A stretch of 64,000 nucleotides of DNA from Vulcanimicrobiota bacterium (GCA_963795695.1 CAWCJH010000002.1:701241-765240), one strand, 5' to 3'; shown: positions 5,312 through 58,986, counted from the first letter of the stretch. A program made the numbers and translations. Notes: a model not told the origin generated them from the sequence alone.

Positions 5312-5408
5312 CAGCAAGCACGAAACGTTCGACTCGCACCGGCACGTCGGCGTCGGGATCGGGAATCGCTTCGGGTGGCGCCGCGCGGCCCTGGCGAAAC
5401 TGGGGGCT

Positions 5409-6143: not shown

Positions 6144-6233
6144 GGTCCCTCGTGAGGCATAGCACGTACGGGACGACGACCGTGAAAGATTCGCGTCATC
6201 GGTCATCGCCGCCTCATGGTCGGGTCCTCGGCG

Positions 6234-8972: not shown

Positions 8973-8982
8973 CGGACGGTCC
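8972..8982. promoter_or_regulatory. palindrome CGGACgGTCCG in the divergent intergenic region between the OMP gene and tldD
   Basis: Seen directly in the sequence. A second palindrome, GCCCGttCGGGC, lies a few nucleotides downstream. Confidence 0.2.
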
Positions 8983-9084
8983 GTTGCCGGGCGGCGTCCG
9001 CCCGTCCACCGCTCGGGCCCGTTCGGGCCGTTCTCGCGCCCGGCGTTAAAGTAGTGTCGTGGTCCGGCGCCGTAGACGAGGCCG

Positions 9085-11827: not shown

Positions 11828-11840
11828 AGCGAGACGGCGG

Positions 11841-12419: not shown

Positions 12420-12425
12420 GCGCGC

Positions 12426-13964: not shown

Positions 13965-14029
13965 CGTACGCGATGGGCCCCTGCTTGCCAAGCATGCCGC
14001 ACGGCGCACGCGGCGGCGCTGCGCCTGGA

Positions 14030-14983: not shown

Positions 14984-15132
14984 TGTCTTAGCATGCCTTT
15001 CGAAGGTCCATCCGTCGACGGTCGACCGCCTGGAGGGTTCGTCCGCCGAGCCGGCGAGCCTCCCCCGCATCCTTCCTTCGTCTCGCCCGCCGGGCGAGGA
15101 CACGTGGCCCGTGGTACCGTACCGGACGAGCG

Positions 15133-33022: not shown

Positions 33023-33211
33023 TCACCACAGCACGCCGTCGCCGACCAGGATGTAGAGGATCGGGCCGATCCCCCAGATCAGGCCGACGACCGCCCAGAT
33101 CGCCTTCTGCGCCGGGCGCAGATCGGAGCGCCCGGCGAGGTTGAGCCACATCAGCACGACCGCGATCGGGTGCAGGATCGCGGCCAGCAGGATCTCCAGC
33201 ACGAGCTTCAT
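33023..33211 (-). CDS. small PLDc_N-type membrane protein
   Basis: 62 aa (MKLVLEILLAAILHPIAVVLMWLNL...IWGIGPILYILVG), hidden at the 3' end of a long track ORF. Its ATG overlaps the upstream gene stop as ATGA. Confidence 0.55.
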   Translation of the reverse strand: MKLVLEILLAAILHPIAVVLMWLNLAGRSDLRPAQKAIWAVVGLIWGIGPILYILVGDGVLW

Positions 33212-43633: not shown

Positions 43634-45055
43634 TCACGCCGCCGCGGCCGGCCGGCGGCGCTCGCGCGCGAGCAGCACCAGCAGCGCGCCGGCGCCGGCC
43701 AGCGCGGCGGACACGATCGTCGCGAGGTTGTTGCCCTGGGCGAGCACGTGGTCCGGTGCGCCGGCCGCGTGGCTGGACGCGACCACCGCGACCACGATCG
43801 CCACGCCGATCGACGAGCCGACGTAGCGCGCCGTGTTGTTGGCGCCCGAGCCCATGCCGCCGCGACCGGGCGGGACGCTCTCGACCGCCAGGCGCGCGAG
43901 CGCCGCGTTGAGCAGCCCGCTGCCCAGGCCCGCGATCACCAGGCCCGGCGCGAGCCGGAACCACGCGCTCTGCTCGCTCATGCCGAGCATCGCCACCTCG
44001 CCGAGCGCGCACAGCAGCATGCCCAGCGCGAGCTGGTGGCGGCTGCGCAGGTGGGGCGCCAGCCGGCGCGCCTCGAGCGCGACGACGAACGACGTGCCGG
44101 ACCAGATCGCCAGCACGGCGCCGGCGCCCAGCGGGGCGAGGTGCAGCGAGCGCTCGAGCACGGTCGGCAGGTAGCTCATCAAGCCGATGATCGCCAGACC
44201 CGTGAACAGCGCGCCCAGGCTGGCGGCGACGAAGGCGGGACTGCGCAGGAGCGAGAGGTCCATCATCGGCTCGCGCGCGCGCGCCTCGACCGCGACGAAC
44301 GCCGCCAGCAGCACGACGCTGCCCGCGAAGAGGCCCAAGACGTGAGGCTGGCCCCAGCCGAGGCGGCCTTCGATCAGCGCCGCGAGCAGCAGCGTGACGC
44401 CGAGCGAGAACGTGAGCACGCCCGGCACGTCGATCCGGCGCGGCGCCGCGCTGCGCGACTCCGCCAGGCGCAGCGCGCCGAGCAGCACCGCGACGGCCGC
44501 GGCGCCGATGACCCAGAACACCGCTCGCCAGCCGGCCACCTGCGCGAGCGCGGCGGAGAACACCGGCCCGATCGCGATCCCCAGGCCGACCATCGCGCCC
44601 CAGATGCCGGTCGCGCGAATCCGGTCCGGCCCGGTCGGGTACGCGTCGCCGATCAGCCCAAGGCTGGCGGCGGTCAGGCTCGCGCTCGCGCAGCCCTGCA
44701 CGATCCGGGCCACGACCAACAGCCAGGTGGAGTTCGAGAGGGCGCAGGCCAGCGTGGCCGCCGCCATGACCGCCGTGCCGATGACGAACACGCGCTTGCG
44801 GCCGTAGTCGTCCGCCAGGCTGCCGGCGGTGAGCAGCAGCGCCGCGAGGCCCAGACTGATGCCGCTGAGGATCCAGATCTGGCCGCTCAGCGAGGCGTGC
44901 AGCGAGGTCGCGATCGGCGAGAGCACGGTCATCGGCGCGGTGTAGTTGATCAGCACCAGCAGCGTCGCCGCGCTGGCCACGACCAGGGTGACCAGCGCGC
45001 TCGGCGCGTGCGGGTCGCTGCGCGATTCGCAGACCGGGAGGGTGGCTGAGGCCAT
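43634..45055 (-). CDS. MFS transporter (DHA2-like, 14 TMS)
   Basis: 14 hydrophobic helices. MFS motif GxLaDrxGrkR (LADDYGRKRV). Confidence 0.8.
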   Translation of the reverse strand: MASATLPVCESRSDPHAPSALVTLVVASAATLLVLINYTAPMTVLSPIATSLHASLSGQIWILSGISLGLAALLLTAGSLADDYGRKRVFVIGTAVMAAATLACALSNSTWLLVVARIVQGCASASLTAASLGLIGDAYPTGPDRIRATGIWGAMVGLGIAIGPVFSAALAQVAGWRAVFWVIGAAAVAVLLGALRLAESRSAAPRRIDVPGVLTFSLGVTLLLAALIEGRLGWGQPHVLGLFAGSVVLLAAFVAVEARAREPMMDLSLLRSPAFVAASLGALFTGLAIIGLMSYLPTVLERSLHLAPLGAGAVLAIWSGTSFVVALEARRLAPHLRSRHQLALGMLLCALGEVAMLGMSEQSAWFRLAPGLVIAGLGSGLLNAALARLAVESVPPGRGGMGSGANNTARYVGSSIGVAIVVAVVASSHAAGAPDHVLAQGNNLATIVSAALAGAGALLVLLARERRRPAAAA

Positions 45056-45070
45056 GGGGAACGTCCTTCT

Positions 45071-46105
45071 CTAGCGGCGGGTCGCCACGAGCGCGCGCAC
45101 GTCGAGCGGCAGCTCGTGCGAGGCTCGCAGCTCGAAGCCGGAACGGGAGAGCAGGCTGCGGTACTCGCTCTCGCTCCGCTCGCCGCCGCCCGCGACCGCC
45201 ATCATGTGCAGGTCGTAGGCCAGCGCCAGCGACCGGCCGTCGACCGGCTCGTCGTCTTCGGGCAGCACGCGCTCGACGACGATCAGCTCGGCGCCGGGCG
45301 GCATCGCGGCGTGGCAGTTGGCGAGCAGCGCCAGGCACTCTTCGTCCTCCCAGTCGTGCAGAATCCGGCCCAGGAGGTAGACGTCGCCGCCGGCCGGGAC
45401 CGACTCGAAGAAGTCGCCGGTCCGCAGGTCGCAGCGGCCTTCGAGCCCCTGCGAGGCGAGCAGCGTGCGCGCGGTCTCGACCACCGCCGGGCGGTCGAAG
45501 AGCACGCCGCGCGCGCCGGGGTGCTTGCGCAGGATCGCGGCGAGCAGCGCGCCGCTGCCGCCGGCCACGTCGACCACCACGCGGGCGCGGGAGAAGTCGT
45601 GCACCTGCGGGACCTGCGAGAGGAACGCGCGCCCGGCGATCATCGCGCGGTCGAAGCGGCGCCCGGTCTCGGGGTTCGCCGCGAAATAGCCGAACATGTC
45701 GGTGCCGAAGACCTTGGCGAAGGCGTACTCGCCGGTCTGCACGTTGTCGAGCACCGTGCCCCACGCCTGGTAGAACTCCTCGCCGTAGAGGATGGCGAGG
45801 TCGTGCATCGACCCCTCGGCGTCGCGGCGCAGCAGCCGCCCGAGCTCGGTGAGCGCGTAGCCCGCGGTGTTGTCGCCTTCCAGCACGCGGATGCCGCGCA
45901 GGAAGTTGAGCAGCCGGCGCAGCGAGTGCGGGTCGGACCCGGTGGCGGCGGCGAGCTGCGCGCCGTTCAGCCGGCGCTCCGCCAGCAGGTCGGCGATCCC
46001 GAGGCGAGCGGCGATGCGCAGCGCCTGGGTGTTCCAGTACCCGACGATCAGCTCCAGCAGCGACCGCTCCGGGCTGGTGGCGAGCGCCGATCCTTCCGCG
46101 ATCAT
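45071..46105 (-). CDS. class I SAM-dependent O-methyltransferase (COMT / plant-type OMT family)
   Basis: N-terminal dimerisation helix. SAM motif VVDVAGGSGALL. ATG at 46105 overlaps the upstream MFS stop as ATGA. Confidence 0.8.
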   Translation of the reverse strand: MIAEGSALATSPERSLLELIVGYWNTQALRIAARLGIADLLAERRLNGAQLAAATGSDPHSLRRLLNFLRGIRVLEGDNTAGYALTELGRLLRRDAEGSMHDLAILYGEEFYQAWGTVLDNVQTGEYAFAKVFGTDMFGYFAANPETGRRFDRAMIAGRAFLSQVPQVHDFSRARVVVDVAGGSGALLAAILRKHPGARGVLFDRPAVVETARTLLASQGLEGRCDLRTGDFFESVPAGGDVYLLGRILHDWEDEECLALLANCHAAMPPGAELIVVERVLPEDDEPVDGRSLALAYDLHMMAVAGGGERSESEYRSLLSRSGFELRASHELPLDVRALVATRR

Positions 46106-47538
46106 GCTTGGCTGCGCACCCAGCGCCGGCTGAGCAGCACGATGCTCAGGAAACAGGCGGCGACGATGCAGAGGTCGATCCGCAAGCCCAGCCCGGCGTC
46201 GGGCAGCGCGAGGAAGGCGCCCAGCAGCGCCACCCCGATCGCCATGCCGAGCTGGCGGGCCGAGTTGAGCACGCCCGAGGCCAGCCCCGACTGCGCCGGC
46301 TCGACGGCGAGGAACACCGCGGCGTTGAGGCTCGGCGAGAAGACCCCGCAGCCGAAGCCGATCAGCGTGGTGCCCGCGATCAGCAGCGGCATGCTGCTCG
46401 GTCCTGCCAGCGGCAACAGGAGCAGCGTGCCGACCAGCGACACGGTGGCGCCGGTCCACAGCAGCCAGCGGGGACCGCGGTGCACGAGCCGGCGCGCCGG
46501 GACGATCGTGCCGAACACCCAGGCCACCGCGAACGGCACGAAGATCATGCCGGTCGTCAGCGCGCTCTCGTGCCAGCGGGTCTGCAGGTAGACCGCGAGC
46601 ATGAACTGCACGCCGTAGCCTCCGAGCTGGAACGCGAAGCCGTTGCTGATCGCGGCGGTGAACGCGCCGCGCCGGAACATGCGCGGCGGCAGCACCGGCT
46701 CGGCGGCCCGCAGCTCGGCCAGCACGAACGCCGCCCCGCAGACCAGCGCCGCCACCAGCAGGCCGATGGTCGAGGCCGCGCCCCAGCCGGCGGCGCCGCC
46801 CTGGATCAGGCCGGCCACCAGGGCCGCCACGGCCAGGATCGCGCTGAGCTGGCCGGCCAGGTCGAAGTGCCGGTTCGGGTTGGCCGGGGTCTCGCGCACG
46901 AAGAGCAGGGCCAGGGCGACCGTGGCCAGGCCGACCGGGACGTTGATCAGGAAGATCGAGCGCCAGCCGAACGCCACGGTCAGCGCGCCGCCCAGCAGCG
47001 GCCCGATGATCAGGCCGGACGCGCCGGTCGCGCCCCAGACGGTGATCGCGCGCGAGCGCTCGACGGTGTCGGCGTAGCTGCGGGCGATGATGGTGAGCGT
47101 GGCCGGCAGCACCGCGGCCGCCGCCGCGCCCTGGACGACCCGGGCGGCGACCAGCACGCCCAGGTTCGGGCTCAGGCTGCAGGCCAGCGAGGCGCCGGTG
47201 AACGCGATCAGGCCCCAGGCGAAGACCCGCCGAGCGCCCCAGCGGTCGCCCATCGCGCCGCCCGAGAGCAGCACCGCGGCGAGCGGAACCGTGTAGGCGT
47301 TGACCGTCCACTGCATGGATGCCAGCGTCCCGTGCAGGTCGGCGCGGATCGAGGGCAGCGCGACGTTGAGCGCGCTGCCGTCGAGCAGGACCATGAAGAA
47401 GGCGATGCAGACCGCCGCCAGCGCCAGGGAGGCGTGGTCGGCGGCAGCCGGCGGGGCGGCGAGGGAGCCGGCCGGGGCGACGCGGGCCCGGGCGGGCCCC
47501 GGCGCGGAACGGAGATCGGGTGAAGGCTTGATGGCCAT
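46102..47538 (-). CDS. MFS transporter (DHA2/EmrB-like)
   Basis: 14 TMS. RBS AAGGAAG lies 10 nt upstream of ATG 47538. Confidence 0.8.
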   Translation of the reverse strand: MAIKPSPDLRSAPGPARARVAPAGSLAAPPAAADHASLALAAVCIAFFMVLLDGSALNVALPSIRADLHGTLASMQWTVNAYTVPLAAVLLSGGAMGDRWGARRVFAWGLIAFTGASLACSLSPNLGVLVAARVVQGAAAAAVLPATLTIIARSYADTVERSRAITVWGATGASGLIIGPLLGGALTVAFGWRSIFLINVPVGLATVALALLFVRETPANPNRHFDLAGQLSAILAVAALVAGLIQGGAAGWGAASTIGLLVAALVCGAAFVLAELRAAEPVLPPRMFRRGAFTAAISNGFAFQLGGYGVQFMLAVYLQTRWHESALTTGMIFVPFAVAWVFGTIVPARRLVHRGPRWLLWTGATVSLVGTLLLLPLAGPSSMPLLIAGTTLIGFGCGVFSPSLNAAVFLAVEPAQSGLASGVLNSARQLGMAIGVALLGAFLALPDAGLGLRIDLCIVAACFLSIVLLSRRWVRSQA

Positions 47539-47603
47539 GGGGCAGAGTCTTCCTTTGCGCGGTCGGCGGTGGCGGAGCCGGCGGTCAGGCGTCAGCGTAA
47601 CAG

Positions 47604-47616
47604 TGTACCAGGTACA
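47604..47616. promoter_or_regulatory. perfect 13-bp palindrome TGTACCaGGTACA upstream of the MFS-OMT-MFS unit (candidate operator)
   Basis: Located 66-78 nt upstream of the MFS start, in the only gap of about 100 bp in the cluster. It shares GGTACAA with the motif near 54318. Confidence 0.35.
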
Positions 47617-47638
47617 ATGTCTACCGCTCGGCGTGCCG

Positions 47639-49606
47639 TCAGGAGGCGGCGAGCTCGGTGAGGCTCGCGCCGGCGTGGGTGCGGCGGCCGGCGTCGGCCC
47701 GGCGGTGCGCCTGGCCGACCTTGAGGACCAACCGGGCGATGAGATCGCCTTGGAGCAGGGTCCGCGAGTTGACCAGCGGCCGCGCCCCGATGGCGGTGAC
47801 CCACTGCACTCCTTCGACCGGCGGCCCGTAGCTGTAGCGGCCGGGGTGCGGTGTGCCGGTCACATCGATCAGCCGGTGGGTGCGCTCCTCGATGTCGAGC
47901 GCGCCGGTCTCGTAGCCCGGGCCGCCGGCGTCGGGGATGACGTGCGGCCGGCAGCCGCCGGCGCGCCGCAGGTAGGTCAGCAGCGGATCGGTGGCGCGCC
48001 GCAGGTCGGAGGGCGGGAGGTGGGCCTCGATGAGCGCGCGCACCGGCAGCGGCGCCTCGTCGACGGCAGGCGAGCCCACCCGGAAGCAGCCCGCCGCCTC
48101 GTCGGTCTCGATACGCAGCGAGGGTCCGGCGAAGCTGACCAGGCCGGCCTCGACCAGCGCCGCCAGCTCGCGGACGCGGGTCGCGGGCGGGCCGCTGGCG
48201 ACCAGGTTGTTGAGCCCGCTGAACCAGCCGTCGATGTGCTCGCGGTACGAGCTCCCGCGCAGGCCGCGGTACGAGACCACCTGCCGGATCTCGTCCCGCA
48301 GGTCGCGCATGATCGACGCCAGCGCCTTGCGCGGGCTGCCCTCGGGCCCCAGGCTGCTCTGGACGTAGTCGTCGGCCAGGCGCTGGGCGATCCAGCGCCC
48401 GTACTCGGCGCGGTCGGCGAAGCGGCGGCCTTCGGCCGGCCGGTCGACCGAGAGCCAGTCCCAGCGGTCGGCCGGATCGGGACAGACCTGCGCGATCAGC
48501 GCTTCCATCTCGGGCGAGCCCCAGGCGAGCTGCGGATAGGTCGCATCGAACTCGGCCAGCGCCCGGGCGTCGCCGCGCGCGGCGACCACGTGCCGGTAGT
48601 AGACCCAGCCGGACTCCTTGGCCACCAGCGGCCAGACGTCGGTCTGGAAGTCGAGCGTGCCCGTGCCGGCGTGGGCCCGCAGGCGCCGGACCGCGTCGGC
48701 ATCGAGGAAGCGCGGCTCGTAGCGGGCGACCACCGCTTTGCGGATCTCGGCCCGGGCCATGAACGGCAGGCCGCGGCCCGAGCCGGCCAGGATCGCCGGC
48801 TCGGCGCCCGAGGGCCGGTAGACGAGCCGGTCGCCGACCTCCTCGAACCGCCCGCCGCGGCCGACGGTGAGCAGGGTCATGTAGTCGTAGAAGTTCAGGC
48901 CCAGGCCGCGCAGCACCACCGGCTGGCCCGGCGCCAGGTCGGAGAGGTCGACCTCGGCCGGGCTGGCCGGCGGCACGTAGCGCAGGCCGTGGCGCGCGGC
49001 GAAGTCGATCAGCTTCTGCTGGCCGGGCGACGGCGCGACGTCGTAGTGGCCCATGGCGAGCACCGCCGCGTCGACCACCAGCGGCTCGGCGCGGTTCTCC
49101 AGCCACAGCTCCTGGCGGCCGTCGGTGCGGTCGTCGAGCGCGACCGCCCGCGCTCCGTAGGTGCGCACCCGGATTTCGGGCGGCGCGGTGGCCACGATGT
49201 GCTCGAAGGCCCAGTGCAGGTAGCGGCCCTGGAAGGCCCGGCTGGCGTAGGACCACGGCTCCATGCGCGCGGCCTCCGCGCGGGTCGCCGGGTCGGCCGG
49301 CACCGTTCCCTCGGCGACCATGCGCGCCCACTCGTACTGGGTCGGGCCCTTCACCAGCGGTCCCTCGCAGCGCACGGTCGGGTCGGTGAACACGGTGACG
49401 TCGGAGGCGACCGTGTTCATCAGCAGGATGGCGGTCTGGTCGGTCCGCCAGACGCGGCCCGCGCCGGTCGTCTCGGGGTCCACGACGTGCACCTCGACCG
49501 GTACGCCCGGCGCGAGCTCGCGCACGTTGGCGCACAGCCGCTCGAGCATGATGGTGCCGCGCGGACCGGCTCCGACGACGGCGACGTGAATGGGCTGGCC
49601 TTGCAT
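47639..49606 (-). CDS. FAD/NAD(P)-binding oxidoreductase (PF13454-like; putative flavin monooxygenase)
   Basis: N-terminal dinucleotide-binding motif VAVVGAGPRG. 655 aa with a second Rossmann-like region (VVLRGLGLN). Confidence 0.65.
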   Translation of the reverse strand: MQGQPIHVAVVGAGPRGTIMLERLCANVRELAPGVPVEVHVVDPETTGAGRVWRTDQTAILLMNTVASDVTVFTDPTVRCEGPLVKGPTQYEWARMVAEGTVPADPATRAEAARMEPWSYASRAFQGRYLHWAFEHIVATAPPEIRVRTYGARAVALDDRTDGRQELWLENRAEPLVVDAAVLAMGHYDVAPSPGQQKLIDFAARHGLRYVPPASPAEVDLSDLAPGQPVVLRGLGLNFYDYMTLLTVGRGGRFEEVGDRLVYRPSGAEPAILAGSGRGLPFMARAEIRKAVVARYEPRFLDADAVRRLRAHAGTGTLDFQTDVWPLVAKESGWVYYRHVVAARGDARALAEFDATYPQLAWGSPEMEALIAQVCPDPADRWDWLSVDRPAEGRRFADRAEYGRWIAQRLADDYVQSSLGPEGSPRKALASIMRDLRDEIRQVVSYRGLRGSSYREHIDGWFSGLNNLVASGPPATRVRELAALVEAGLVSFAGPSLRIETDEAAGCFRVGSPAVDEAPLPVRALIEAHLPPSDLRRATDPLLTYLRRAGGCRPHVIPDAGGPGYETGALDIEERTHRLIDVTGTPHPGRYSYGPPVEGVQWVTAIGARPLVNSRTLLQGDLIARLVLKVGQAHRRADAGRRTHAGASLTELAAS

Positions 49607-49616
49607 GGATGTCTCC

Positions 49617-50810
49617 TTACTCTCCGGCGGCGCCGACGGTCACCAGCGAACGGGGTCGCGCGGCCTGCCGCGCCTGCGCGGACGGCGCGTCCGCGCTCTC
49701 GATCGTCGCGTTCGAGAACGAGTGGAAGCTCGCGTCGATCGCGCGCAGCAGGCCCCACATCTCGATGTACTCCAGGCCCGGCCCGGCGAGCTCGCTCTTG
49801 GCGGACTGCAGCGCTCGGCGCGCCGTGATGTAGTTGGGCCAGTCGCCGCGCGGCTCGTAGTGGTGGTAGTCGTGCGCGGGGCCCGAGTCACCGGGCAGTA
49901 CGATGAGGCGCACCAGGATCGTGCCGAGCAGCCGGACGCACCAGCCCACCCAGGCCCGCGCCCGGGCCGCCGGCGCGAGCTCGCGCGCGGGCGGCGCGGC
50001 GCCGAGGTAGACGCACGGGGTGAGCTCGGTGAACGCGCTGCGCTGGCGCTCCTGCGGCGGCGTCGCGCTCCAGCGGTGCTCCATGCACAGCCGCACCGCG
50101 GCGACGGTCTGGTAGACGAGCCCCAGCGGGACGAGGAAGCCCACCACCAGCAGCAGCTCCAGGCGGAAGACCACCGTCACGGCGAGCACCGCCGCGAGGT
50201 AGGCCGTCGCCAGCCCGCGCGCGAGCGGCGATGCGCCCGCGAAGTGCGAGCGGATGCGGCCCGCGAACGAGCGCAGGTGGAACGCCGGCGAGGCGACCGA
50301 GAGCCACAGCCGCCGCCACATCTGCGCCGGCGTCATGCCGGGCCGGATGCCGAGCGAGAGCAGGAACAGCACCGTCGGGTCCTTGGTCGTCGAGAGCGTG
50401 CGCAGCGAGTGGTGCTCGACGCAATGCCCTCGCTTGTAGCGGTCGAACTCCTCGAACAGCAGCACGACGGAGAGCAGGCGGCCGACCCAGACGTCGACGA
50501 GCTTGTGGCGGGTGAAGTTGTCGTGCGCCGCGACGTGCACGATCACGAGCTGCAGGTAGCGCGCCGCGCCGACCGTGCAGACGTACGCCGGCAGCAGCAG
50601 CCAGAGCTGGTGCCGGGCGAGCGCCGCGGCGCTCAGCGCGAACCCGGCGGCGAGCGCCGCGAGCACGCGCAGGAACAGCGGTACCGGCCGGCGCCGCGGC
50701 AAGGTTTGACCGGGCAGCGCGGCGCCGGTGAGATACGTCCACCAGACTTGCGTCCAGCCGGGAAAAGCTCGGCCCAGCGCGAGGCGGGGCGAGAGAACAT
50801 CGTCTTGCAT
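49617..50810 (-). CDS. membrane fatty-acid-desaturase-family di-iron enzyme (desaturase/hydroxylase)
   Basis: Three His boxes (HVAAHDN, HCVEHH, HDYHHY) and 4-5 TM helices. Confidence 0.65.
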   Translation of the reverse strand: MQDDVLSPRLALGRAFPGWTQVWWTYLTGAALPGQTLPRRRPVPLFLRVLAALAAGFALSAAALARHQLWLLLPAYVCTVGAARYLQLVIVHVAAHDNFTRHKLVDVWVGRLLSVVLLFEEFDRYKRGHCVEHHSLRTLSTTKDPTVLFLLSLGIRPGMTPAQMWRRLWLSVASPAFHLRSFAGRIRSHFAGASPLARGLATAYLAAVLAVTVVFRLELLLVVGFLVPLGLVYQTVAAVRLCMEHRWSATPPQERQRSAFTELTPCVYLGAAPPARELAPAARARAWVGWCVRLLGTILVRLIVLPGDSGPAHDYHHYEPRGDWPNYITARRALQSAKSELAGPGLEYIEMWGLLRAIDASFHSFSNATIESADAPSAQARQAARPRSLVTVGAAGE

Positions 50811-50820
50811 GTCGATCAGG

Positions 50821-52305
50821 TCATCCGAGCAGGGGATGGAGGCGGCGCAGGTCGACCTTGCCGGCCGTGTTGTAGGGAATCGCCGGGACCGGGATCACGA
50901 CCGGCGTGGCGGCGGCCAGCGCGCGTTCGAGGTGCGCGGCGACGGTGCTCGGGGCGTCGGGTACGGCGGCGACCAGCGCGGCGACCACCTCGACGCCGGC
51001 CGAGCCGGGCCGGCGGACCACGCAGACGTCCTCGACGCCCGGCAGCTCCTTGAGCTCGCCCTCGAGCGCGACCACGTCGAGGCTTCCGTCGCCGGGCAGG
51101 GCGTCAGACCGGCTGGCGATCCGCAGCTCGCCCCGGCCGCCGAGGCGGCCGAAGTCGCTGGTCACGATCCAGCGCCGGCCGTCGCGCTCGAGCGCGGGCT
51201 GCCCGCCGTGCACGTAGCCGTCCATGTTGACCGGGCTGGCGACCGCGATCAGCCCGAGCTCCCCGGGCGGCAGGTCGCGCAGCGTGCCGGGCTCGACGAT
51301 GCGCAGGGCCACGCCGGGCATGGGAAACCCGGCCGACTGCGGCTCGCGCCGCAGCTCGTCGGGTGGGGCCATGGTGTTGATGCCGGTCTCGGTGGTGGCG
51401 TAGTACAGGTGCACGACGTGGCCGAGACGGCCGGCGGCCTGCCGCAGCGCCCGCGGGCTCAGGTGGCGTCCGCCGGTGAGCACCAGGCGCAGCGACGAGA
51501 GGTCGGCCGCGGGCCGGGCGCAGGCGGCGGCCACGAACGCCTCGAGGGCCGGCGGCACGAAGAAGCCGGCATCGATCCGCCGCTCGGCCACCAGGCCGAC
51601 CAGCTCGTCGGGGGTGCCGGCGCCCAGCACCACCTGCGCTCCCAGCGCCAGCGCCGCGGCGGCCCAGACGTGCCCCGAGGCATGCGAGAGCGGCGAGGTG
51701 ATCAGGAACCGGCTGGCCGGCCCGATCCCGCAGCGGCGCAGGTACGCCTGCCGCTGGTCCTCGCTCTTCGACGAGCGCACGAACAGCTTGGGAACGCCGG
51801 TCGAGCCGCTGGTGAAGCCCAGCGCCCGGTACGGCGGCCGGCGCCAGGCGCGCTCGGCGCACGTTCCGGCCAGCGCGGCCGCCCAGGCGTGCGTTTGCTC
51901 GCCGCCCGCGTGCACCGGGGCGAGGTCGAGCAGCAACGCGCCGCGCTGGGCGGCCTGGGCGGCGACCCGGCCGGCGCGCAAGCGCCGGTCGACGACCAGT
52001 AAGGTCGGGGCCACCGCCCGCACCTGGCTGCGCACCGTGTCGTCGTCGCGCGCGGGGTCGATGCCGACCCACGGGACGCCCAGCGCCCCCAGCGCCGCCG
52101 CGACGATCACGACGTCGGCGGTGTTCGGCGCCACCACGACCGCCTGGTTCGTGGCGCCGTCGTCGAGCCGGGCGGTGAGCCAGGCGCGCAAGGCGGCGAC
52201 CCGGTCGCGCAGGCCGGCCCAGCTCAGGACGGTCCGCTCGTCGCTCACGGCGGGAGCGGCCGGTGCGGTGCCGGCCAGCTCGGCCAGCCGGTCCAGCCCG
52301 ATCAC
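50821..52305 (-). CDS. stand-alone ANL-superfamily adenylation enzyme (AMP-binding)
   Basis: A3 motif FTSGSTGVPK, A5 YYATTETG, A10 NTAGKVDLRRL. GTG at 52305 overlaps the glmE stop as GTGA. Confidence 0.8.
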   Translation of the reverse strand: MIGLDRLAELAGTAPAAPAVSDERTVLSWAGLRDRVAALRAWLTARLDDGATNQAVVVAPNTADVVIVAAALGALGVPWVGIDPARDDDTVRSQVRAVAPTLLVVDRRLRAGRVAAQAAQRGALLLDLAPVHAGGEQTHAWAAALAGTCAERAWRRPPYRALGFTSGSTGVPKLFVRSSKSEDQRQAYLRRCGIGPASRFLITSPLSHASGHVWAAAALALGAQVVLGAGTPDELVGLVAERRIDAGFFVPPALEAFVAAACARPAADLSSLRLVLTGGRHLSPRALRQAAGRLGHVVHLYYATTETGINTMAPPDELRREPQSAGFPMPGVALRIVEPGTLRDLPPGELGLIAVASPVNMDGYVHGGQPALERDGRRWIVTSDFGRLGGRGELRIASRSDALPGDGSLDVVALEGELKELPGVEDVCVVRRPGSAGVEVVAALVAAVPDAPSTVAAHLERALAAATPVVIPVPAIPYNTAGKVDLRRLHPLLG

Positions 52306-53621
52306 GCCGGTCCTCCGGCGGGCAGCGCGCCGGGCGCGGGGGTCTGGGCGAGCGCCGTCGGGTCGGCGGCCGGGGCGAGGTGCGCCGCGTCGAAGCGGTG
52401 CTCGACGAACGAGAGCATCTCGAGCAGGCCGGTCGCGGTGACGCGCTTGTGGGCCGTGCTCGCGGCGCTGATCGGCATCGCGCCGGTGTCGGCCCACTGC
52501 AGCCAGCCGCGCTCGTCGATGAAGCCGCGGCTGCGGCCCGCGTTGTCGGCGTGCAGGCAGTACGGCACGTCGAGATAGCCGCGCTTGAACGCGATGCGGA
52601 TCGCCCGGCCGAGGTCGGGGTCGAGCGCGAGCACGTTCTCGACCAGCGCGCGCGCCTCGCGCTCGATGCCGGTGTCGGCCGGCACGTGCGCCGTGCCTTC
52701 GGCGCGCTGCTCGCGGTCGGCACGGGCGGCGTGCTCGAGCGCGTCGACGTTGTCCGCGATGGTCGGGATGCGGTACGCTTCGGCCGGCGTCTTCACGATC
52801 AGCCGCTCCGCGCCGGCCCGGGTCGCCAGCCGCGCGCTCTGCTCGACGACGTCGAGCGCGCCCGGCCGCGTGCGCGGGAAGACGCCCATGTAGGTGTAGA
52901 TCACCACGTGCCAGTCGAGCGGGTCGAGGTACTCGCCGGCCAGCGTGCGCAGCGCCGCGATCGCTTCGAGGTCCTGCTCGACGTTGGTCTGCTGCGCGTA
53001 GCTGACCGACACGCTGGTGAGGCCGTGGCGGCGGAAGAAGATGCCCTCGAGCAGCGACACCGCGATCAGCAGGCTGGGCGGGCAGAGCTGTCCGAGCAGA
53101 CAGCCGCCGAAGCTCTCCAGGTGGATCGGGTTTCCGGCCCGGGTCTCTTCGCCCAGCAGCGCGCAGGAACGCGACCAGTCGTCGACCGCGTCGGCGAGCG
53201 GCGTTCGGCCGTACGGCAGGCAGTACGAGATCGGACCGCCTTCGGTCGCGCCGATGCCGGCCTCCACCAGCGTTTGGAAGACGCGGTACGGCAGCGAGGT
53301 GCCGTGCCGCACCTGCACCGGAAAGTCGGGCCCGGCGACGTCGGCGAGCATGGCGCGGGTGGCCGCGGTGCCGTGCGCGACGATCGGAAAGCCGTTGAGC
53401 TCGTGGCCCTCGCGCAGCGCCTGCTCGGCCGCGGCGTGATCGCCCACCCGCGTGTAGCTGTCGAGCGTCAAGGTGCCAGCGGTGCGCCCGCGGGCGGCCT
53501 TGACCGCGCACAGCCCGGCGTGCATCTGGTCGATCCGGCCGAAGCCCATGCGCGGCTGCACGACGAGCTCGCCTTCGGCGCGCGCCCGCGCGACGAAGTC
53601 ACCGAACACCGGGCGCATCAT
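52302..53621 (-). CDS. glmE: glutamate (methylaspartate) mutase E/epsilon subunit
   Basis: Blocks colinear with clostridial MutE/GlmE: QPRMGFG, LDSYTR, NGFPIVAHGT, QVRHGT, GGPISYCLPYGR, LIVKTPAEAYRIPT. ATGATGA overlap with glmS. Confidence 0.8.
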   Translation of the reverse strand: MMRPVFGDFVARARAEGELVVQPRMGFGRIDQMHAGLCAVKAARGRTAGTLTLDSYTRVGDHAAAEQALREGHELNGFPIVAHGTAATRAMLADVAGPDFPVQVRHGTSLPYRVFQTLVEAGIGATEGGPISYCLPYGRTPLADAVDDWSRSCALLGEETRAGNPIHLESFGGCLLGQLCPPSLLIAVSLLEGIFFRRHGLTSVSVSYAQQTNVEQDLEAIAALRTLAGEYLDPLDWHVVIYTYMGVFPRTRPGALDVVEQSARLATRAGAERLIVKTPAEAYRIPTIADNVDALEHAARADREQRAEGTAHVPADTGIEREARALVENVLALDPDLGRAIRIAFKRGYLDVPYCLHADNAGRSRGFIDERGWLQWADTGAMPISAASTAHKRVTATGLLEMLSFVEHRFDAAHLAPAADPTALAQTPAPGALPAGGPA

Positions 53622-54100
53622 GACGCCAGCGCTCGCCGCGGGCCGTGTTCGAGCGAGCGGACGAAGTGCTCGAAACCTTGCGTGCCGGTGCCCGCCTCGA
53701 AGACGGCGTCGAAGCCCGACTCCAGCAGGCCTTCGGCGTGGGCCGCGTTCTCCGCGCCGCGCACGCCGAGCTTGCCGCCGATGACGACCGGCAGCTGCGC
53801 CAGCTCGCGCTGCCCGCGCAGGCGGCGGATCAGCCGTGCGCCGTCGATGTTGCCGTGCCCGTTGACGGTGCTGAGCACCAGCATGTCGGGCCGGGCGCGC
53901 CGGCACTCCGCGACGACCAGCTCGTCGGGTGCGCAGACGCCCAAGTTGATGACCTCGTGCCCCATCTCTTCGAGCAGCAGCTGGAGGAAGACGAGGTTCC
54001 AGGTATGAGAATCCGATGAAACGGTCGATACGACGATGCGGAGCTTCTTCGCAGACGGGGGCTTCGGTTCGCTCGTGCGGATTCGAACGGCGTCTTGCAA
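53618..54100 (-). CDS. glmS: glutamate mutase S/sigma (B12-binding) subunit
   Basis: B12-binding Rossmann domain with the SSDSHTWN variant of the DxHxxG loop. Colinear with MutS (IVVSTVSSDSH..., STVNGHGNIDG, VVIGGKL). TTG at 54100 is preceded by AGGAAG. Confidence 0.75.
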   Translation of the reverse strand: MQDAVRIRTSEPKPPSAKKLRIVVSTVSSDSHTWNLVFLQLLLEEMGHEVINLGVCAPDELVVAECRRARPDMLVLSTVNGHGNIDGARLIRRLRGQRELAQLPVVIGGKLGVRGAENAAHAEGLLESGFDAVFEAGTGTQGFEHFVRSLEHGPRRALAS

Positions 54101-54270: not shown

Positions 54271-54326
54271 GTACATACTAGTACGTACGTAAAGATGTTG
54301 TCTAGCCCCGTCGGGGCTGGTACAAG
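54271..54326. promoter_or_regulatory. divergent promoter/operator region: imperfect 18-bp palindrome GTACaTACTAGTAcGTAC, hairpin AGCCCCG-t-CGGGGCT and a GGTACAA box
   Basis: Lies in a low-GC intergenic region of about 300 bp between glmS (minus) and the acyl-CoA ligase (plus). The motifs are seen directly in the sequence. Confidence 0.35.
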
Positions 54327-54401: not shown

Positions 54402-55901
54402 GTGGACTTGCCCACCGTCCCCCGCCTCTTGATGCGAGCCGCCGCGCGCTTCGGCGACGCCCCGTGCCTGACGTCCGACGGCCGGACGACCAGCTTCGCC
54501 GGGTTGGCGCACGAGGTCGCACGGCGGGCGGGCTGGCTGCGCGCCCAGGGCGTCGAGCCGGGCGACCGCGTGCTGCTGGCCGGACCCAACGGCGGCGAGC
54601 TGATCGCGGCCTGGCTGGCGGCCGTCCACGCGGGGGCCGTTCCGGCCGCCGTCAACCCGGCCCTGACCGTGCCCGAGCTGGCCTACGTCGTCGCGGACCT
54701 GCGCCCGCGAGCCGGCTTGGCCGACCCGAGCGTGCCGGCTGCCGCCGAGGCGCTCGCCGCCGCGGGCGTGCCGGTTCTGCCGCTCGCTGCGCCCGGCAGC
54801 GCGGCGGCGGTTCCGCCGCACGCCGCGCAGCCGAGCGACGTCGCGGCGATCGTCTACACCTCCGGCACGACCAGCCGGCCGAAAGGCGCGCTGGTGCGCC
54901 ACCTCGCGTACACCGGCGCCGGCACGGCGATGCCGGGCTGGATCGGCCTGGGCGAGCGCGAGCGGCTGTGGTGCGTGCTGCCGCTGTTCCACATCAACGC
55001 CCAGGCCTATTCGCTGATGACCGCGCTGGCGCACGGGTACGAGCTGGTGATCTGGCCGAAGTTCCGCGCCTCGACGTTCTGGCGCGACGCCGCTGCCCTG
55101 GAGGTCACCGAGGTCAACCTGATCGGCGCGATGCTGGCGATCCTGGCCGACCGGCCGCCGGAGCAGTTCGTGCCCGGCGCGCTGCGCACGGTCTATGCCG
55201 CGCCCGCGCTCGCGCCGGAGCAGAACCGCGCCTTCGAAGCGCGCTTCGGGGTGCGCATCGTGACCGGGTTCGGCATGTCGGAGAACACCTTCGGCACCGT
55301 GCAGAGCGCGACGTCGGTGACGAAGCCGAGCAGCATCGGCCGGCCGCGCGCGCACCCGGCGGTGCCGAACGCCCTGCGCATCGTGGCGCCCGACGGCACG
55401 CTCGCACCGGACGGCGCGGTCGGCGAGCTGCAGTTCCGCAACCCCGCGGTGACCCCGGGCTACTGGAACGCGCCGGAGATCACCGCGCGCGCGCTCGACG
55501 AGGGCTGGCTGCGCACCGGCGACGCCGGCTACGTCGATCCCGACGGCGACGTGATCCTGGTCGGCCGCTACAAGGAGATGATCCGCCGGCGCGGCGAGAA
55601 CGTCGCGCCGGGCGAGGTCGAGGACGCGCTGCGCGAGCACGCCGGCGTCGAGAGCGCCGCGGTCGTCGGCGTGCCGTCGTCGCTGACCGAAGAAGACGTC
55701 GTGGCGTGCGTGATCCGGCGCGCGGGCAGCGCGGTCGACGAGACGGAGCTGCGGGCGTGGTGCGGCGGGCGGCTGGCGCCGTACAAGGTGCCGGCACGGG
55801 TGCTCTTCCGCGAGGCGTTCCCGCTCACCCCGACCATGCGCGTCGCCAAGGACAAGCTGCGGGCCGAGATCCTGCCGCTGCTCGGCGCGGAGCTGCGCTG
55901 A
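54402..55901 (+). CDS. AMP-dependent acyl-CoA synthetase/ligase (CaiC-like)
   Basis: YTSGTTSRPKG (A3), GFGMSE (A5) and C-terminal PYKVP...K motifs. GTG at 54402 with GAGGA 5 nt upstream. Confidence 0.8.
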   Translation: MDLPTVPRLLMRAAARFGDAPCLTSDGRTTSFAGLAHEVARRAGWLRAQGVEPGDRVLLAGPNGGELIAAWLAAVHAGAVPAAVNPALTVPELAYVVADLRPRAGLADPSVPAAAEALAAAGVPVLPLAAPGSAAAVPPHAAQPSDVAAIVYTSGTTSRPKGALVRHLAYTGAGTAMPGWIGLGERERLWCVLPLFHINAQAYSLMTALAHGYELVIWPKFRASTFWRDAAALEVTEVNLIGAMLAILADRPPEQFVPGALRTVYAAPALAPEQNRAFEARFGVRIVTGFGMSENTFGTVQSATSVTKPSSIGRPRAHPAVPNALRIVAPDGTLAPDGAVGELQFRNPAVTPGYWNAPEITARALDEGWLRTGDAGYVDPDGDVILVGRYKEMIRRRGENVAPGEVEDALREHAGVESAAVVGVPSSLTEEDVVACVIRRAGSAVDETELRAWCGGRLAPYKVPARVLFREAFPLTPTMRVAKDKLRAEILPLLGAELR

Positions 55902-56608
55902 TGGCCGAGCCGTACGAGATCGCCGCCGTCACGCCGCTCGCCGTCGCGGCCCGGCCGCGCATGAAAGAGGGCATCGTCGACCAGCTGCGGCGGCTGATCA
56001 TCGAGGGCACGCTGCCGCCGGGGACGGTGCTGCGCCAGGAGCACCTGGCCAAGCGGCTCAACGTCAGCCGCACGCCGCTGCGCGAGGCGCTCGTCGCGCT
56101 GGAGCGCGAGGGCTTCGTCACGTTCGCGCCGAGCGGCGCCGCCTCGGTCGTCTCGCTCGACGCCAGGGACGCGCGCGAGATCATGGACGTGCGCGAGCTG
56201 GTCGACGGGCTGGCCGCGCGGACCCTGGCGCTGCGCGGCATGAGCGCCGCGGTCGAGGACGCGCTGCGCGCGCTGGCCGAGCGGATGCACGGGCTGGCCG
56301 CGCGCGACAAGCACCGCTACCTGACCGCCAACGCCGACTTCCACGCCACCATCGTCGAGGCCAGCGGCCATGCGCGGCTGCAGCAGTTCGTGCCGCTGGT
56401 GCGCATGTCGTCGGAAGTCGTCTACCTGCGCCTGCAGAACCAAGGGCCGCGGCTGCGCAGCTCGGCCGAAGAGCACAGCGCGGTGCTCGACGCGATCCGC
56501 GCCGGCGACGGCGAGCGCGCCGAGCGGCTGGCGCGCGCGCACGTGCGGGCGGCCGCCGCCCACTGGATCGCCGAGGAGGACGACGATGCCCAACGTACGA
56601 GCCGCTGA
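55901..56608 (+). CDS. GntR-family regulator with an FCD (FadR C-terminal) domain
   Basis: HTH (HLAKRLNVSRTPLREALVALEREG) plus a helical FCD domain. TGATG overlap with the ligase. Confidence 0.8.
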   Translation: MAEPYEIAAVTPLAVAARPRMKEGIVDQLRRLIIEGTLPPGTVLRQEHLAKRLNVSRTPLREALVALEREGFVTFAPSGAASVVSLDARDAREIMDVRELVDGLAARTLALRGMSAAVEDALRALAERMHGLAARDKHRYLTANADFHATIVEASGHARLQQFVPLVRMSSEVVYLRLQNQGPRLRSSAEEHSAVLDAIRAGDGERAERLARAHVRAAAAHWIAEEDDDAQRTSR

Positions 56609-57401
56609 TCTCGAGGTCGCCTACGCGCTCGACGGCGCGCCCGATGCGCCGGTGCTGGTGCTCGGCAACTCGCTGGGCACCAGCCTGGAGCTGTGGGACG
56701 ACCTGGTCGCGCCGCTGGCGCGCGAGTACCGCGTGCTGCGCTACGACATGCGCGGCCACGGCGGCACCCGGCCGGTGCCGGCGGACGGCACCACCTCGGT
56801 CGGCGCGCTGGCCGACGACGTCGTGGCGCTGCTCGACGCGCTGGGCATCGAGCGCGTCCGCTACGCCGGCATCTCGCTGGGCGGGATGGTCGCGCAGCGG
56901 CTCGCCGCGGCCTACCCGCAGCGGGTCGCGGCGCTGGCGCTGCTGGCGACCGGCCACGTCATCGGCACGGCGGCGGTCTGGGACGAGCGCATCGCGCGGG
57001 TCGAGCGCGAAGGGCTGGACGGCCTGGCCGAGAGCGTGCTGGCGCGCTGGTTCACGCCGCGCACGCACGCCGAGCGGCCGGAGCTGATCGCGCGCTTCGG
57101 CGCGATGCTGCGCGCCACGCCGCCGGCCGGCTACGCCGCCGGCTGCCGCGCGGTGCGCGACGCCGACCTGGGCGCCGGTGACCGCACGATCGCCGCACCG
57201 GCCCTGATCCTGGCCGGCGCGCAGGACGCCGTCACGCCGCCCGCCGCCGGCGAGGCGCTGCGCGGGCTGATCCCCGGCGCGCGCCTGGAGGTGGTGGACG
57301 GGGCCGCCCACATCATCCCCGCCGAGCAGCCCGCGGCCGTGCTCGGCGCGCTGCTGCCGTTCCTGCGCGCGGCCGACGCGCGCGCGGGTGCGCTCCGGTG
57401 A
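56586..57401 (+). CDS. pcaD: 3-oxoadipate enol-lactonase
   Basis: Alpha/beta hydrolase with GISLGG. Sits inside a pca operon. Confidence 0.75.
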   Translation: MPNVRAADLEVAYALDGAPDAPVLVLGNSLGTSLELWDDLVAPLAREYRVLRYDMRGHGGTRPVPADGTTSVGALADDVVALLDALGIERVRYAGISLGGMVAQRLAAAYPQRVAALALLATGHVIGTAAVWDERIARVEREGLDGLAESVLARWFTPRTHAERPELIARFGAMLRATPPAGYAAGCRAVRDADLGAGDRTIAAPALILAGAQDAVTPPAAGEALRGLIPGARLEVVDGAAHIIPAEQPAAVLGALLPFLRAADARAGALR

Positions 57402-57787
57402 GCGACTCGCGCGAGGCCGGGACGGCGACCCGGCGGGCGGTGCTGGGCGACGCGCACGTCGACCGCGCGCAGGCCGCGACGACCGACTTGACCCGCGACT
57501 TCCAGGACTTCATCACCCGCTACGCCTGGGGCGAGGTCTGGAACCGCCCGGGCCTGGAGCGCAAGACGCGCAGCATGCTGACCATCGCGATGATGGCGGC
57601 GCTGGGCCGGCTGGAGGAGCTCGAGCTGCACGTGCGCGCGACGCGCAACACCGGCGTGACGCGCGACGAGGTGCGCGAGATCTTGCTGCAAGTCGCCGTC
57701 TACGCCGGCGTTCCGGCGGCCAACAGCGCCTACCGGCATGCCGCGGCGGTCTACGCCGCAATGGAAGAAGAAGAGGACCGCCCGTGA
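57398..57787 (+). CDS. pcaC: 4-carboxymuconolactone decarboxylase
   Basis: CMD family, 129 aa (FITRYAWGEVW...). GTGA overlap. Confidence 0.8.
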   Translation: MSDSREAGTATRRAVLGDAHVDRAQAATTDLTRDFQDFITRYAWGEVWNRPGLERKTRSMLTIAMMAALGRLEELELHVRATRNTGVTRDEVREILLQVAVYAGVPAANSAYRHAAAVYAAMEEEEDRP

Positions 57788-58503
57788 TCGCACCGTCCCT
57801 GGTCTATCCGCCCGAGCCGCCGGGCACGCAGCCGCCCTACGACTACCCCGGCTACACCAGCACGATCAAGCGCCACCCCACGCGCGACCCGATCGTCGTT
57901 CCGGCCGGGCCGGCGGAGCTGAGCGGGCCGGCGTTCGAGGACCGCTGGTGCGGCCCCGACGTGGTCGACCTCACGCGGCCGCACGCGGGCGGCGAAGAGG
58001 CGCAGGGGCAGCGCATCATCGTCGCGGGGCGCGTGCTCGACGAGGACGGCCGGCCGCTGCGCCGCACGCTGGTCGAGCTGTGGCAGGCCAACGCCGCGGG
58101 CCGCTACCACCACGACTCCGACACGCACGACGCGCCGCTGGACCCGCACTTCACCGGCGCGGGCCAGATGGTGACCGACGACGAGGGGCGCTGGCGCTTC
58201 CTCACGATCCGGCCCGGCGCGTACCCGTGGCGCAACACGTACAACGCCTGGCGCCCGGCGCACCTCCACTTCTCGCTCTTCGGCGCGGGCTTCGGCTCGC
58301 GGCTGATCACGCAGATGTACTTCGAAGGCGACCCGCTGCTGGCGACGGACCCCGTCCTCCACAGCATCCCCGACGCGGCGGCGCGCGCGCGGCTGGTCGC
58401 GGCGTACGACCCCACGCTCAGCGAGGCCGAGTACGCGCTCGGCTATACCTGGGACATCGTGCTGCGCGGGCGCTACGAGACGCCGCGGGAGGCGAGCCGG
58501 TGA
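57784..58503 (+). CDS. pcaH: protocatechuate 3,4-dioxygenase beta subunit
   Basis: Intradiol dioxygenase motifs (LWQANAAGRYHH...RPAHLHFSLFG). Confidence 0.85.
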   Translation: MIAPSLVYPPEPPGTQPPYDYPGYTSTIKRHPTRDPIVVPAGPAELSGPAFEDRWCGPDVVDLTRPHAGGEEAQGQRIIVAGRVLDEDGRPLRRTLVELWQANAAGRYHHDSDTHDAPLDPHFTGAGQMVTDDEGRWRFLTIRPGAYPWRNTYNAWRPAHLHFSLFGAGFGSRLITQMYFEGDPLLATDPVLHSIPDAAARARLVAAYDPTLSEAEYALGYTWDIVLRGRYETPREASR

Positions 58504-58986
58504 CGTACCTGCCGACGGGCTCGCAGACGATCGGGCCGTTCTTCCGCGCGGCGATGCAGCGGCCGGCCTGGAGCGACCTGACGCGCGACGGCGCGCCGGG
58601 CGAGCCGGTCCGCATCGAGGGCACGGTCTACGACGGCGACCGCGCGCCGGTCCCCGACGCGCTGCTGGAGCTGTGGCAGCCCGAGGTCGGCTTCGGCCGC
58701 TCGTGCACCGACGTCGACGGCCGCTACTGGTTTCGCACGGTCACCACGCCGTACGCCAGCGTGTCGATCTTCGCGCGCGGCCTGCTCAAGCGGCTTGATC
58801 ACGCGCATCTACTTCGCCGACCGCGCCGACGAGAACGCGCGCGACCCGCTGCTGCGCTCGATCGCGGACGCCGCGGTGCGCGACACGCTCGTCGCGCAGC
58901 GCAGCGAGCACGTGAGCGGTCTGGTGGCGTACCGCTTCGACATCGTCCTGCAGGGCGCGGGCGAGACGGCGTTCCTCGCGTTTTGA
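58500..58986 (+). CDS. pcaG: protocatechuate 3,4-dioxygenase alpha subunit, interrupted by an apparent +1 frameshift near 58792
   Basis: N-terminal part in frame 0 (...YASVSIFARGLLKRL). The conserved C-terminus ITRIYFADRADENARDPLL...YRFDIVLQGAGETAFLAF* is in frame +1 (context aagcggctTgatc). Length 487 = 3n+1. Confidence 0.75.

Follow-up and report, generated by a model that had tools for sequence, protein, structure and literature searches.

Results

The subject of this analysis is a compact operon in the genome of a Vulcanimicrobiota bacterium, located on the minus strand of a 64,000-nucleotide stretch (GCA_963795695.1 CAWCJH010000002.1:701241-765240, hereafter the window) at positions 43634-54100. 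Its eight genes encode both subunits of a putative B12-dependent glutamate mutase (GlmS and GlmE), a stand-alone adenylate-forming enzyme (ANL), a membrane di-iron enzyme (DES), a flavin-dependent N-monooxygenase (NMO), an O-methyltransferase (OMT), and two MFS exporters (Table 1). Because the window has a G+C content of ~73 %, raw lists of open reading frames are crowded, and genes were called by frame analysis of third-position GC (GC3) combined with Pfam. The eight genes stand out by third-position GC and each belongs to a Pfam family, which upholds the coordinates, the common strand, and all family names given in an earlier note, made by a model from the sequence alone. That note also had the starts and stops overlapping except at one gap. 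The gap is real, being the single long one of the operon (100 bp, 47539-47638, at the NMO/MFS junction), but overlaps occur at only three of the seven junctions (glmS/glmE ATGA, glmE/ANL GTGA, and MFS1/OMT ATGA); three further junctions have spacers of ~10-18 nt, with AGGAG-like ribosome sites visible at two of them.

Table 1. Genes of the operon and the promoter-like site preceding it (positions in the window)
Feature	Position	Strand	Details
glmS-like B12-binding small subunit of glutamate mutase	53618..54100	-	160 aa, TTG start; Pfam B12-binding 1.8e-13
glmE-like catalytic subunit of glutamate mutase	52302..53621	-	439 aa; Pfam Met_asp_mut_E 1.4e-98
Stand-alone ANL enzyme, acyl-CoA-synthetase type	50821..52305	-	494 aa; Pfam AMP-binding 8.8e-50
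DES, membrane di-iron oxidase, fatty-acid-desaturase/AlkB superfamily	49617..50810	-	397 aa; Pfam FA_desaturase 1.6e-11
NMO, flavin-dependent amino-acid N-monooxygenase, CreE/FzmM family	47639..49606	-	655 aa; Pfam NAD_binding_9 5.5e-40
MFS efflux pump 1, DHA2 family	46102..47538	-	478 aa; Pfam MFS_1 2.4e-55; NCBIfam efflux_EmrB 5.5e-60
OMT, class I SAM-dependent O-methyltransferase	45071..46105	-	344 aa; Pfam Methyltransf_2 1e-48, Dimerisation 2.8e-14
MFS efflux pump 2, DHA2 family	43634..45055	-	473 aa; Pfam MFS_1 5.2e-52; NCBIfam efflux_EmrB 1.2e-45
Promoter-like site upstream of glmS	54304-54275	-	TAGACA-18-TAGTAT

The gene product taken in the earlier note for a generic tailoring FAD/NAD(P)-binding oxidoreductase is instead an amino-acid N-oxygenase of the CreE/FzmM type. 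It matches PDB entry 8CP2, the crystallised L-aspartate N-hydroxylase from Streptomyces sp. V2, at 3.7e-161 with 47 % identity. This CreE/FzmM homologue catalyses three oxidations of L-Asp to nitrosuccinate, from which 3-nitropropionate arises non-enzymatically (PMC10404684). NMO keeps the FAD and NADPH motifs of this enzyme, its catalytic Asn62, and the substrate-holding arginines 13, 266, 276, 409, 412, 416, and 577 (8CP2 numbering). A residue of the L-Asp entry chamber, Asn413, is replaced in NMO by Asp438, and in the 8CP2 enzyme the mutation N413E left NADPH oxidase activity intact but abolished L-Asp hydroxylation (PMC10404684).

A genome scan with one genome per species, seeded with aligned close homologues of NMO, yielded at least 80 loci, and the counts given in the following refer to the loci listed. 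The homologues separate into a clade of closer relatives (clade A, at least 50 % identity) and a classical group (48 % identity or less), reciprocally monophyletic in 50 of 50 bootstrap neighbour-joining trees and distinguished by 25 fixed-difference columns, including position 413, which is Asp in 28 of 30 clade-A sequences and Asn in 55 of 55 classical ones. Since N413E is inactive on aspartate and clade A carries an acidic residue at the same place, its members seem unlikely to be ordinary aspartate hydroxylases. Genomic context divides the two groups as well. In at least 21 loci of the closer group, DES and GlmS/GlmE genes lie beside the NMO gene, usually in the order DES-GlmS-GlmE-NMO, which corresponds to 21 of 23 informative clade-A loci, with six more ending at a contig edge, whereas not one of the 54 loci of lower identity shows this arrangement. 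Instead, a gene of the nitrosuccinate-lyase type follows directly downstream in 35 of the 44 lower-identity loci with callable genes (the downstream lyase gene of a classical locus reached 617 bits on the NCBIfam nitrosuccinate lyase model, cut-off 650), and a CreD/FzmL lyase was found neither in the operon nor in any of 28 clade-A loci.

The closer group comes from Streptomyces, Kitasatospora, Nocardia, metagenome-assembled genomes (MAGs), two metagenome contigs, and a contig labelled Agrobacterium rosae. The core of DES, GlmS, GlmE, and NMO recurs in about two dozen species, and the gene order of the window is repeated on the independent metagenome contigs L001 and L007 at 74-86 % protein identity; the operon is therefore more than a chance assembly, and the neighbourhood comparison suggested in the earlier note has borne it out. 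Thus, the conserved core is the di-iron enzyme, GlmS, GlmE, and NMO, to which ANL, OMT, and MFS genes are added as exchangeable accessories. Accessory modules include ANL with TetR, MFS, and a Zn-dependent dehydrogenase (in some loci also a PNPOx-like protein), OMT with MFS, and CMD with AraC/DJ-1 and MFS, of which the window combines the ANL and the OMT module. Orthologues of MFS 1 (57-60 %) travel with the ANL module in related loci and those of MFS 2 (52-55 %) with the OMT module. ANL orthologues (46-51 %) were present in just five related loci, and OMT orthologues in Kitasatospora loci (49-52 %) and in L006 (61 %).

The members of the core are themselves exchanged. GlmE of the canonical cassette is 35 % identical to window GlmE and to ordinary Streptomyces GlmE with all catalytic residues kept, and the canonical DES lineage is 33-37 % identical to window DES. 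In L007, the nearest relative of the window, the ANL, NMO, MFS, OMT, and MFS proteins are 76-86 % identical to those of the window, and yet its DES (1079-2323) belongs to the canonical lineage, with 33 % identity to window DES next to an ANL and an NMO at 77-78 %; hence, between the window and L007, a paralogue has taken the place of the DES gene while the operon around it is conserved. Another metagenome contig carries a third DES lineage (41 %), and GlmE and GlmS genes come directly after it. The trio of di-iron enzyme, mutase, and N-oxygenase has thus persisted through exchanges of its components, which argues for a functional unit. A further accessory module is seen in four loci, where a gene for the thiamine pyrophosphate (TPP)-binding subunit of a 2-oxoacid:ferredoxin oxidoreductase lies directly upstream of the clade-A NMO gene. 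A POR-type subunit is also present in L021 (7112-9956) and L025 (6985-9967), and the contigs of L012 and L016 end after the TPP-binding gene. This oxidoreductase pair may be the electron source for the di-iron enzyme.

One further cassette, on the contig labelled Agrobacterium rosae (L006, FMUE01000024.1), is compact and has the order GlmS-OMT-GlmE-DES-NMO (907-7100, 58 % GC). It lies beside a Fic gene, BrnT/BrnA, three TIR-domain genes (two of them ThsB-like), a RES-domain gene, and a resolvase gene (7670-15615), neighbours which suggest carriage on a mobile or defence island.

Homology of GlmS and GlmE to glutamate mutase, as proposed in the earlier note, was upheld by Pfam, by matches to solved chains, and by conservation of the substrate site. 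GlmE matches the E chains of glutamate mutases in the PDB (6h9e_B, 4.9e-40; 1cb7_B, ~1e-39), and the equivalents of Arg66, Arg100, Arg149, His150, Glu171, Tyr177, and Tyr181 are all kept, both in window GlmE and in 22 relatives. In the Clostridium cochlearium structure, Arg66, Arg100, and Arg149 form the substrate-binding "arginine claw", to which Glu171, Tyr177, and Tyr181 are added. GlmS matches the S chains over residues 19-140 (1.6e-08). Its cobalamin motif has Asp-x-His in the form SDSHTWN and lacks the Gly of DxHxxG in register; the form SD[SA]H.WN is also found in ordinary actinobacterial GlmS. The TTG start of glmS in the window is conserved as GTG in L001. Window GlmE is ~60 % identical to abundant Streptomyces methylaspartate mutases. 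As a separate observation, an ordinary Streptomyces GlmS/GlmE operon (L002-L004, for instance CP023696.1, 9390-16811) has the conserved order GlmS-GlmE-SBP_bac_3-two hypotheticals-AA_kinase-TauD and is apparently uncharacterised.

In DES, the histidine boxes H92xxxH96, H129xxxH133H134, and H313xxH316H317 as well as H245 are invariant across 40 homologues. Its AlphaFold2 model is helical (pLDDT 91.5) and gave generic matches to PDB folds, uninformative as to the reaction, with TM-scores of 0.44-0.48 for desaturase-like chains and 0.36 for FtAlkB. The single named neighbour in NCBIfam is GntB, a weak match to part of the profile (2.8e-09; 36.8 bits vs a cut-off of 380). GntB is a transmembrane enzyme that hydroxylates free L-arginine at the gamma position in guanitoxin biosynthesis (bioRxiv 10.1101/2023.03.21.533663). 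An exhaustive HMMER search of 1.84 billion representative sequences returned one DES relative above 50 % identity and a family of ~570 representative clusters, among which no characterised member was found. Three separate lineages of this family adjoin glutamate mutase genes; for relatives at 30 % identity or less (P0298 and P0390), the contexts are short and hold no linkage information.

The best PDB matches of the ANL enzyme are MatB (3.9e-25), McbA (6SQ8, 1.5e-23), CysF (8RA0, 1.4e-18), and VinN (4.9e-16), the last ranking under MatB, McbA, and FadD-type ligases. ANL has a GKV lysine in its C-terminal part, and its A4 region SPLSHASG aligns with PIYHTHG of MatB, an acyl-CoA-synthetase motif, and not with the FDxS of amino-acid domains. 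From this likeness, the enzyme is read as activating a carboxylic acid without a free alpha-amino group. OMT contains the motifs VDVAGGSG and LHDW, and its S-adenosylmethionine (SAM) motif, catalytic His, and N-terminal dimerisation domain are present; its best PDB matches are small-molecule aromatic methyltransferases (6c5b, 4.7e-81; CalO6, PhzM, MmcR, and AlpH). Both exporters named in the earlier note are drug-type DHA2 pumps.

A palindrome serving as operator candidate had been placed by the earlier note in the gap of about 100 bp, and it is indeed present at 47600-47620 as ACAGTGTACC-A-GGTACAATGT (21 bp, 10-nt arms, 90 % complementary). With no mismatch allowed, its core TGTACCNGGTACA is found at a single place in the window, and the same NMO/MFS junction of L007 carries matching half-sites, ATTGTACC-N8-GGTACAAT. 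A second palindrome, GTACATACTAG/CTAGTACGTAC at 54271-54288, overlaps the promoter-like site upstream of glmS, and the L001 equivalent (2020-2060) reads TTGACA...GTACATACTAGTATGTA, so that the GTACATACTAGTA(C/T)GTA palindrome and the promoter-like site are conserved between the window and L001. This layout suggests two transcription units, glmS to NMO and MFS-OMT-MFS, each predicted unit being preceded by a GTAC-rich palindrome, probably a repressor site, that relatives share. In L001 and L007 the cluster has TetR genes at its flanks; in the window it has none. No Rfam family and no tRNA was found in the window, and therefore no cobalamin riboswitch.

To the right, the operon is bordered by a divergent operon on the plus strand (54402-60392) encoding an acyl-CoA ligase, GntR, PcaD, PcaC, PcaH, and an apparent PcaG-PcaB fusion, and to the left by a convergent BrkB/YihY gene. 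Neither flank is kept in the closest relatives L001 and L007, where the pca operon is not beside the cluster; the operon therefore consists of exactly eight genes. Two flanking genes were considered and rejected. The first is a second ANL gene (54402-55901, plus strand), omitted in the earlier note, which is divergent, heads the GntR-pca protocatechuate operon, and is absent from L001. The other is the PcaG-PcaB fusion (58500-60392, 630 aa), the single Lyase_1 protein of the window, which might have been a hidden CreD; it scores 489 bits as PcaB vs 322 as nitrosuccinate lyase, is fused to PcaG, and belongs to the pcaD-C-H operon. Among the ~60 genes scanned in the 64-kb window, no polyketide synthase (PKS), nonribosomal peptide synthetase (NRPS), carrier protein, methylaspartase, mesaconase, or citramalate lyase was found, in agreement with the earlier note, and neither was a pyridoxal phosphate (PLP) decarboxylase.

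Elsewhere in the window, a malic enzyme is encoded (15133-16584, plus strand) that groups at 90 % identity with proteins from MAGs of Candidatus Elarobacter and Candidatus Eremiobacteraeota, and a TonB-receptor-like protein with Plug and CarboxypepD_reg domains is encoded at 6234-9215 (minus strand). The source of the window is therefore probably a member of Candidatus Eremiobacterota (WPS-2) and not an actinomycete. Three further minus-strand genes encode a protein with an extracellular contractile injection system (eCIS) core domain (12426-14009), a KaiC-like double ATPase (34808-36274), and a SpoIIE/HATPase protein (33208-34833), all unrelated to the operon. The G+C content falls to 63 % over 62000-64000, compared to ~73 % elsewhere.

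Discussion

The identity of NMO, together with DES and the mutase as conserved core, shifts the predicted chemistry of this operon to N-O bond formation. We regard the cluster as an N-oxygenation module like that of the aspartate-nitrosuccinate (ANS) pathway, re-plumbed to a B12 mutase. With a confidence slightly above even, we read the operon as directing the biosynthesis of a small, exported, N-O-containing metabolite built from 3-methylaspartate, thus retaining as best reading the small secreted 3-methylaspartate-derived metabolite of the earlier note. Of that interpretation, the mutase, the gene families absent from the window, and the exporters stood, while the analogy with VinN and the generic role of the flavoenzyme did not.

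In the proposed pathway, GlmS/GlmE, whose family membership is observed, would first convert L-glutamate to (2S,3S)-3-methylaspartate. Genetic linkage and the pattern of active-site conservation and divergence then point to NMO as the enzyme that would oxidise the amino group of 3-methylaspartate, or of a form modified by DES, to the hydroxylamine, nitroso, or nitro level. As no CreD lyase accompanies it, the oxidised nitrogen would stay on the carbon skeleton and is probably not set free as nitrite. An alpha-nitro acid could, in analogy to nitrosuccinate, undergo decarboxylation, which would yield a methyl-branched beta-nitro acid. DES may carry out a C-H oxidation of the small polar scaffold (hydroxylation, desaturation, or oxidative decarboxylation) at some point along the route. 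ANL would activate a carboxylate of the deaminated or oxidised acid, which could lead to a CoA thioester, an amide, or a ring closure as in McbA and CysF; OMT could methylate a hydroxyl, nitronate, or carboxyl group, and the two DHA2 pumps would export the product. A methyl-branched beta-nitro acid, a nitroalkene, or an N-O heterocycle are plausible end products.

Known systems offer partial models for these steps. Clostridial glutamate mutase (GlmS/GlmE or MutS/MutE, EC 5.4.99.1) is likewise encoded by two adjacent genes, with an E subunit of the MutE family and an Asp-x-His B12 subunit; in contrast, the window genes lie in a biosynthetic context of an uncultured high-GC lineage, without fermentation genes, glmL/mutL, or methylaspartase, and their GlmS lacks the Gly of DxHxxG as do other GlmS of the actinobacterial type. 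GntB, a membrane enzyme of the same superfamily as DES in a small-molecule amino-acid pathway, sets a precedent through its action on a free amino acid for a transmembrane enzyme such as DES using such a substrate, although DES scores far under the GntB cut-off and aligns with part of the profile. CysF, a beta-lactone synthetase, and McbA, an amide synthetase, resemble the window ANL as stand-alone enzymes of this superfamily that need no carrier protein to handle substituted (di)carboxylic acids of small size, and in forming the warhead of cystargolide and belactosin CysF is paired with the methyltransferase CysG, just as ANL and OMT occur together in the window. Here, the similarity is distant and the hydrolase or ATP-grasp partners are missing, so that the analogy is a functional one only.

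Several observations weigh against this pathway. While the protein families and their genetic linkage are observed directly, we infer the substrates, the oxidation state of the nitrogen, and the final structure from sequence. Two clade-A loci with full flanks (L025 and L033) have neither mutase nor DES within 10 kb. The acidic side chain at position 413 might be unfavourable for dicarboxylates too, 3-methylaspartate among them, so that NMO could in fact use a modified version of it (hydroxylated, amidated, or decarboxylated) or a different amino acid. The nearest solved relatives of OMT methylate planar aromatics, making it a poor fit for a simple aliphatic nitro acid; given this aromatic type, an N-O heterocycle would suit the enzyme better. 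Both mutase subunits miss the NCBIfam equivalog cut-offs (GlmE, 188 vs 390 bits, TIGR01503; GlmS, 61 vs 110 bits, TIGR01501/NF002612), models which appear to be tuned to clostridial and enteric sequences. In addition, the operon encodes neither a reactivase of the GlmL/MutL type nor an electron-transfer partner for DES.

The best surviving alternative, which we nevertheless regard as unlikely, is that NMO supplies nitrogen as in the ANS pathway, acting on L-Asp or another proteinogenic amino acid to yield nitrite, nitrosuccinate, or 3-nitropropionate, with 3-methylaspartate as a separate acceptor or scaffold and N-N or N-nitroso formation by the di-iron enzyme or by ANL in the manner of the CreM-type diazotases. 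Enzymes of the ANL family are known to use nitrite for diazotisation. Moreover, NMO shares with the ANS enzymes of cremeomycin (CreE/CreD) and fosfazinomycin (FzmM/FzmL) biosynthesis and with 8CP2 the same fold and family, Asn62, and the arginine cluster, keeping every L-Asp-binding arginine, and CreE homologues supply many N-N pathways (PMC11705231). What separates the window from these pathways is the missing CreD-type lyase, which is so regular a companion of the classical loci and for which the PcaB-like Lyase_1 protein of the pca operon is no substitute, the distinct NMO clade with an acidic position 413 as in the mutant inactive on aspartate, and the partnership with a B12 mutase and a membrane di-iron enzyme. 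Furthermore, ANL, one of the two candidates for N-N or N-nitroso formation in this scheme, stands outside the conserved core.

A pathway of the vicenistatin type, as envisaged in the earlier note, would make adenylation of 3-methylaspartate by a VinN-like ANL the committed step and leave the flavoprotein, the di-iron enzyme, and OMT as generic tailoring enzymes. To this we attach only a small probability. In vicenistatin biosynthesis (VinH/VinI with VinN and VinO/VinL/VinM), a secondary-metabolism mutase pair is likewise followed by an adenylate-forming enzyme; in the window, GlmS/GlmE and ANL are adjacent and translationally coupled through the GTGA overlap, and VinN is among the PDB matches of ANL. 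This logic was not borne out by the enzyme itself, which is nearer to MatB and McbA and has the His motif of acyl-CoA synthetases where FDxS would be expected; the motif SPLSHASG brings it close to an acyl-CoA ligase unrelated to amino-acid activation, a finding which the earlier note had named as one that would speak against its view. In addition, the window lacks a decarboxylase, carrier protein, aminoacyl-ligase, PKS, and NRPS. Finally, most cassette versions do without ANL whereas NMO is always present, and ANL can therefore not be the committed step.

We consider it very improbable that the operon serves catabolism or detoxification, either degrading glutamate by the methylaspartate route or breaking down and pumping out an amine or nitro compound of external origin, since, although glutamate mutase is classically catabolic, the pumps are of the drug type, and a pca aromatic-catabolism operon adjoins, the methylaspartase, mesaconase, and citramalate lyase of that route are absent from the 64 kb, N-oxygenase and OMT have no part in it, and the pca operon is not kept in the relatives.

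Returning to the reading of an N-O-containing metabolite built from 3-methylaspartate, a more far-reaching form of it can be put forward tentatively. Here, in what would be a type of pathway not recognised before, a radical B12 rearrangement of the carbon skeleton would feed a dedicated flavin N-oxygenase, and a new clade of membrane di-iron enzymes would act on a small polar acid instead of a lipid, giving rise to a new product family. The product would then be an antimetabolite analogous to 3-nitropropionate, in the form of a methyl-branched nitro, nitronate, or nitroalkene compound, or, with ANL and OMT taking part, could instead be a heterocycle of the isoxazolinone or lactone type. We think this doubtful yet possible. 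The cassette is spread over Actinomycetota, Candidatus Eremiobacterota, and the putative mobile island on the contig labelled Agrobacterium.

The earlier note did not recognise the gene combination as a described pathway, and we likewise found no paper joining glutamate mutase, methylaspartate, or cobalamin with N-oxygenation (nitrosuccinate, CreE) in the full-text literature searched, which lay outside subscription-only titles. A 2024 review of N-N bond-forming enzymes mentions neither a mutase nor a desaturase (PMC11705231), and a 2026 paper on diazo capture proved unrelated. The product class stands a fair chance of being new.

To our knowledge, enzymes of the CreE/FzmM type are at present seen as strictly aspartate-specific sources of nitrosuccinate, and through it of nitrite for N-N bonds or, by decay, of 3-nitropropionate. 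Although the window stems from an uncultured phylum, the cassette is present in cultured Streptomyces, Kitasatospora, and Nocardia, and its chemistry can therefore be tested in tractable strains. If our reading is true, clade A would add a branched, non-proteinogenic amino acid to the substrates of flavin N-oxygenation, and glutamate mutase would gain a third role besides fermentation and the supply of beta-amino-acid or lipopeptide building blocks. The cassette would also give the DES family, with its ~570 representative clusters, a first functional context.

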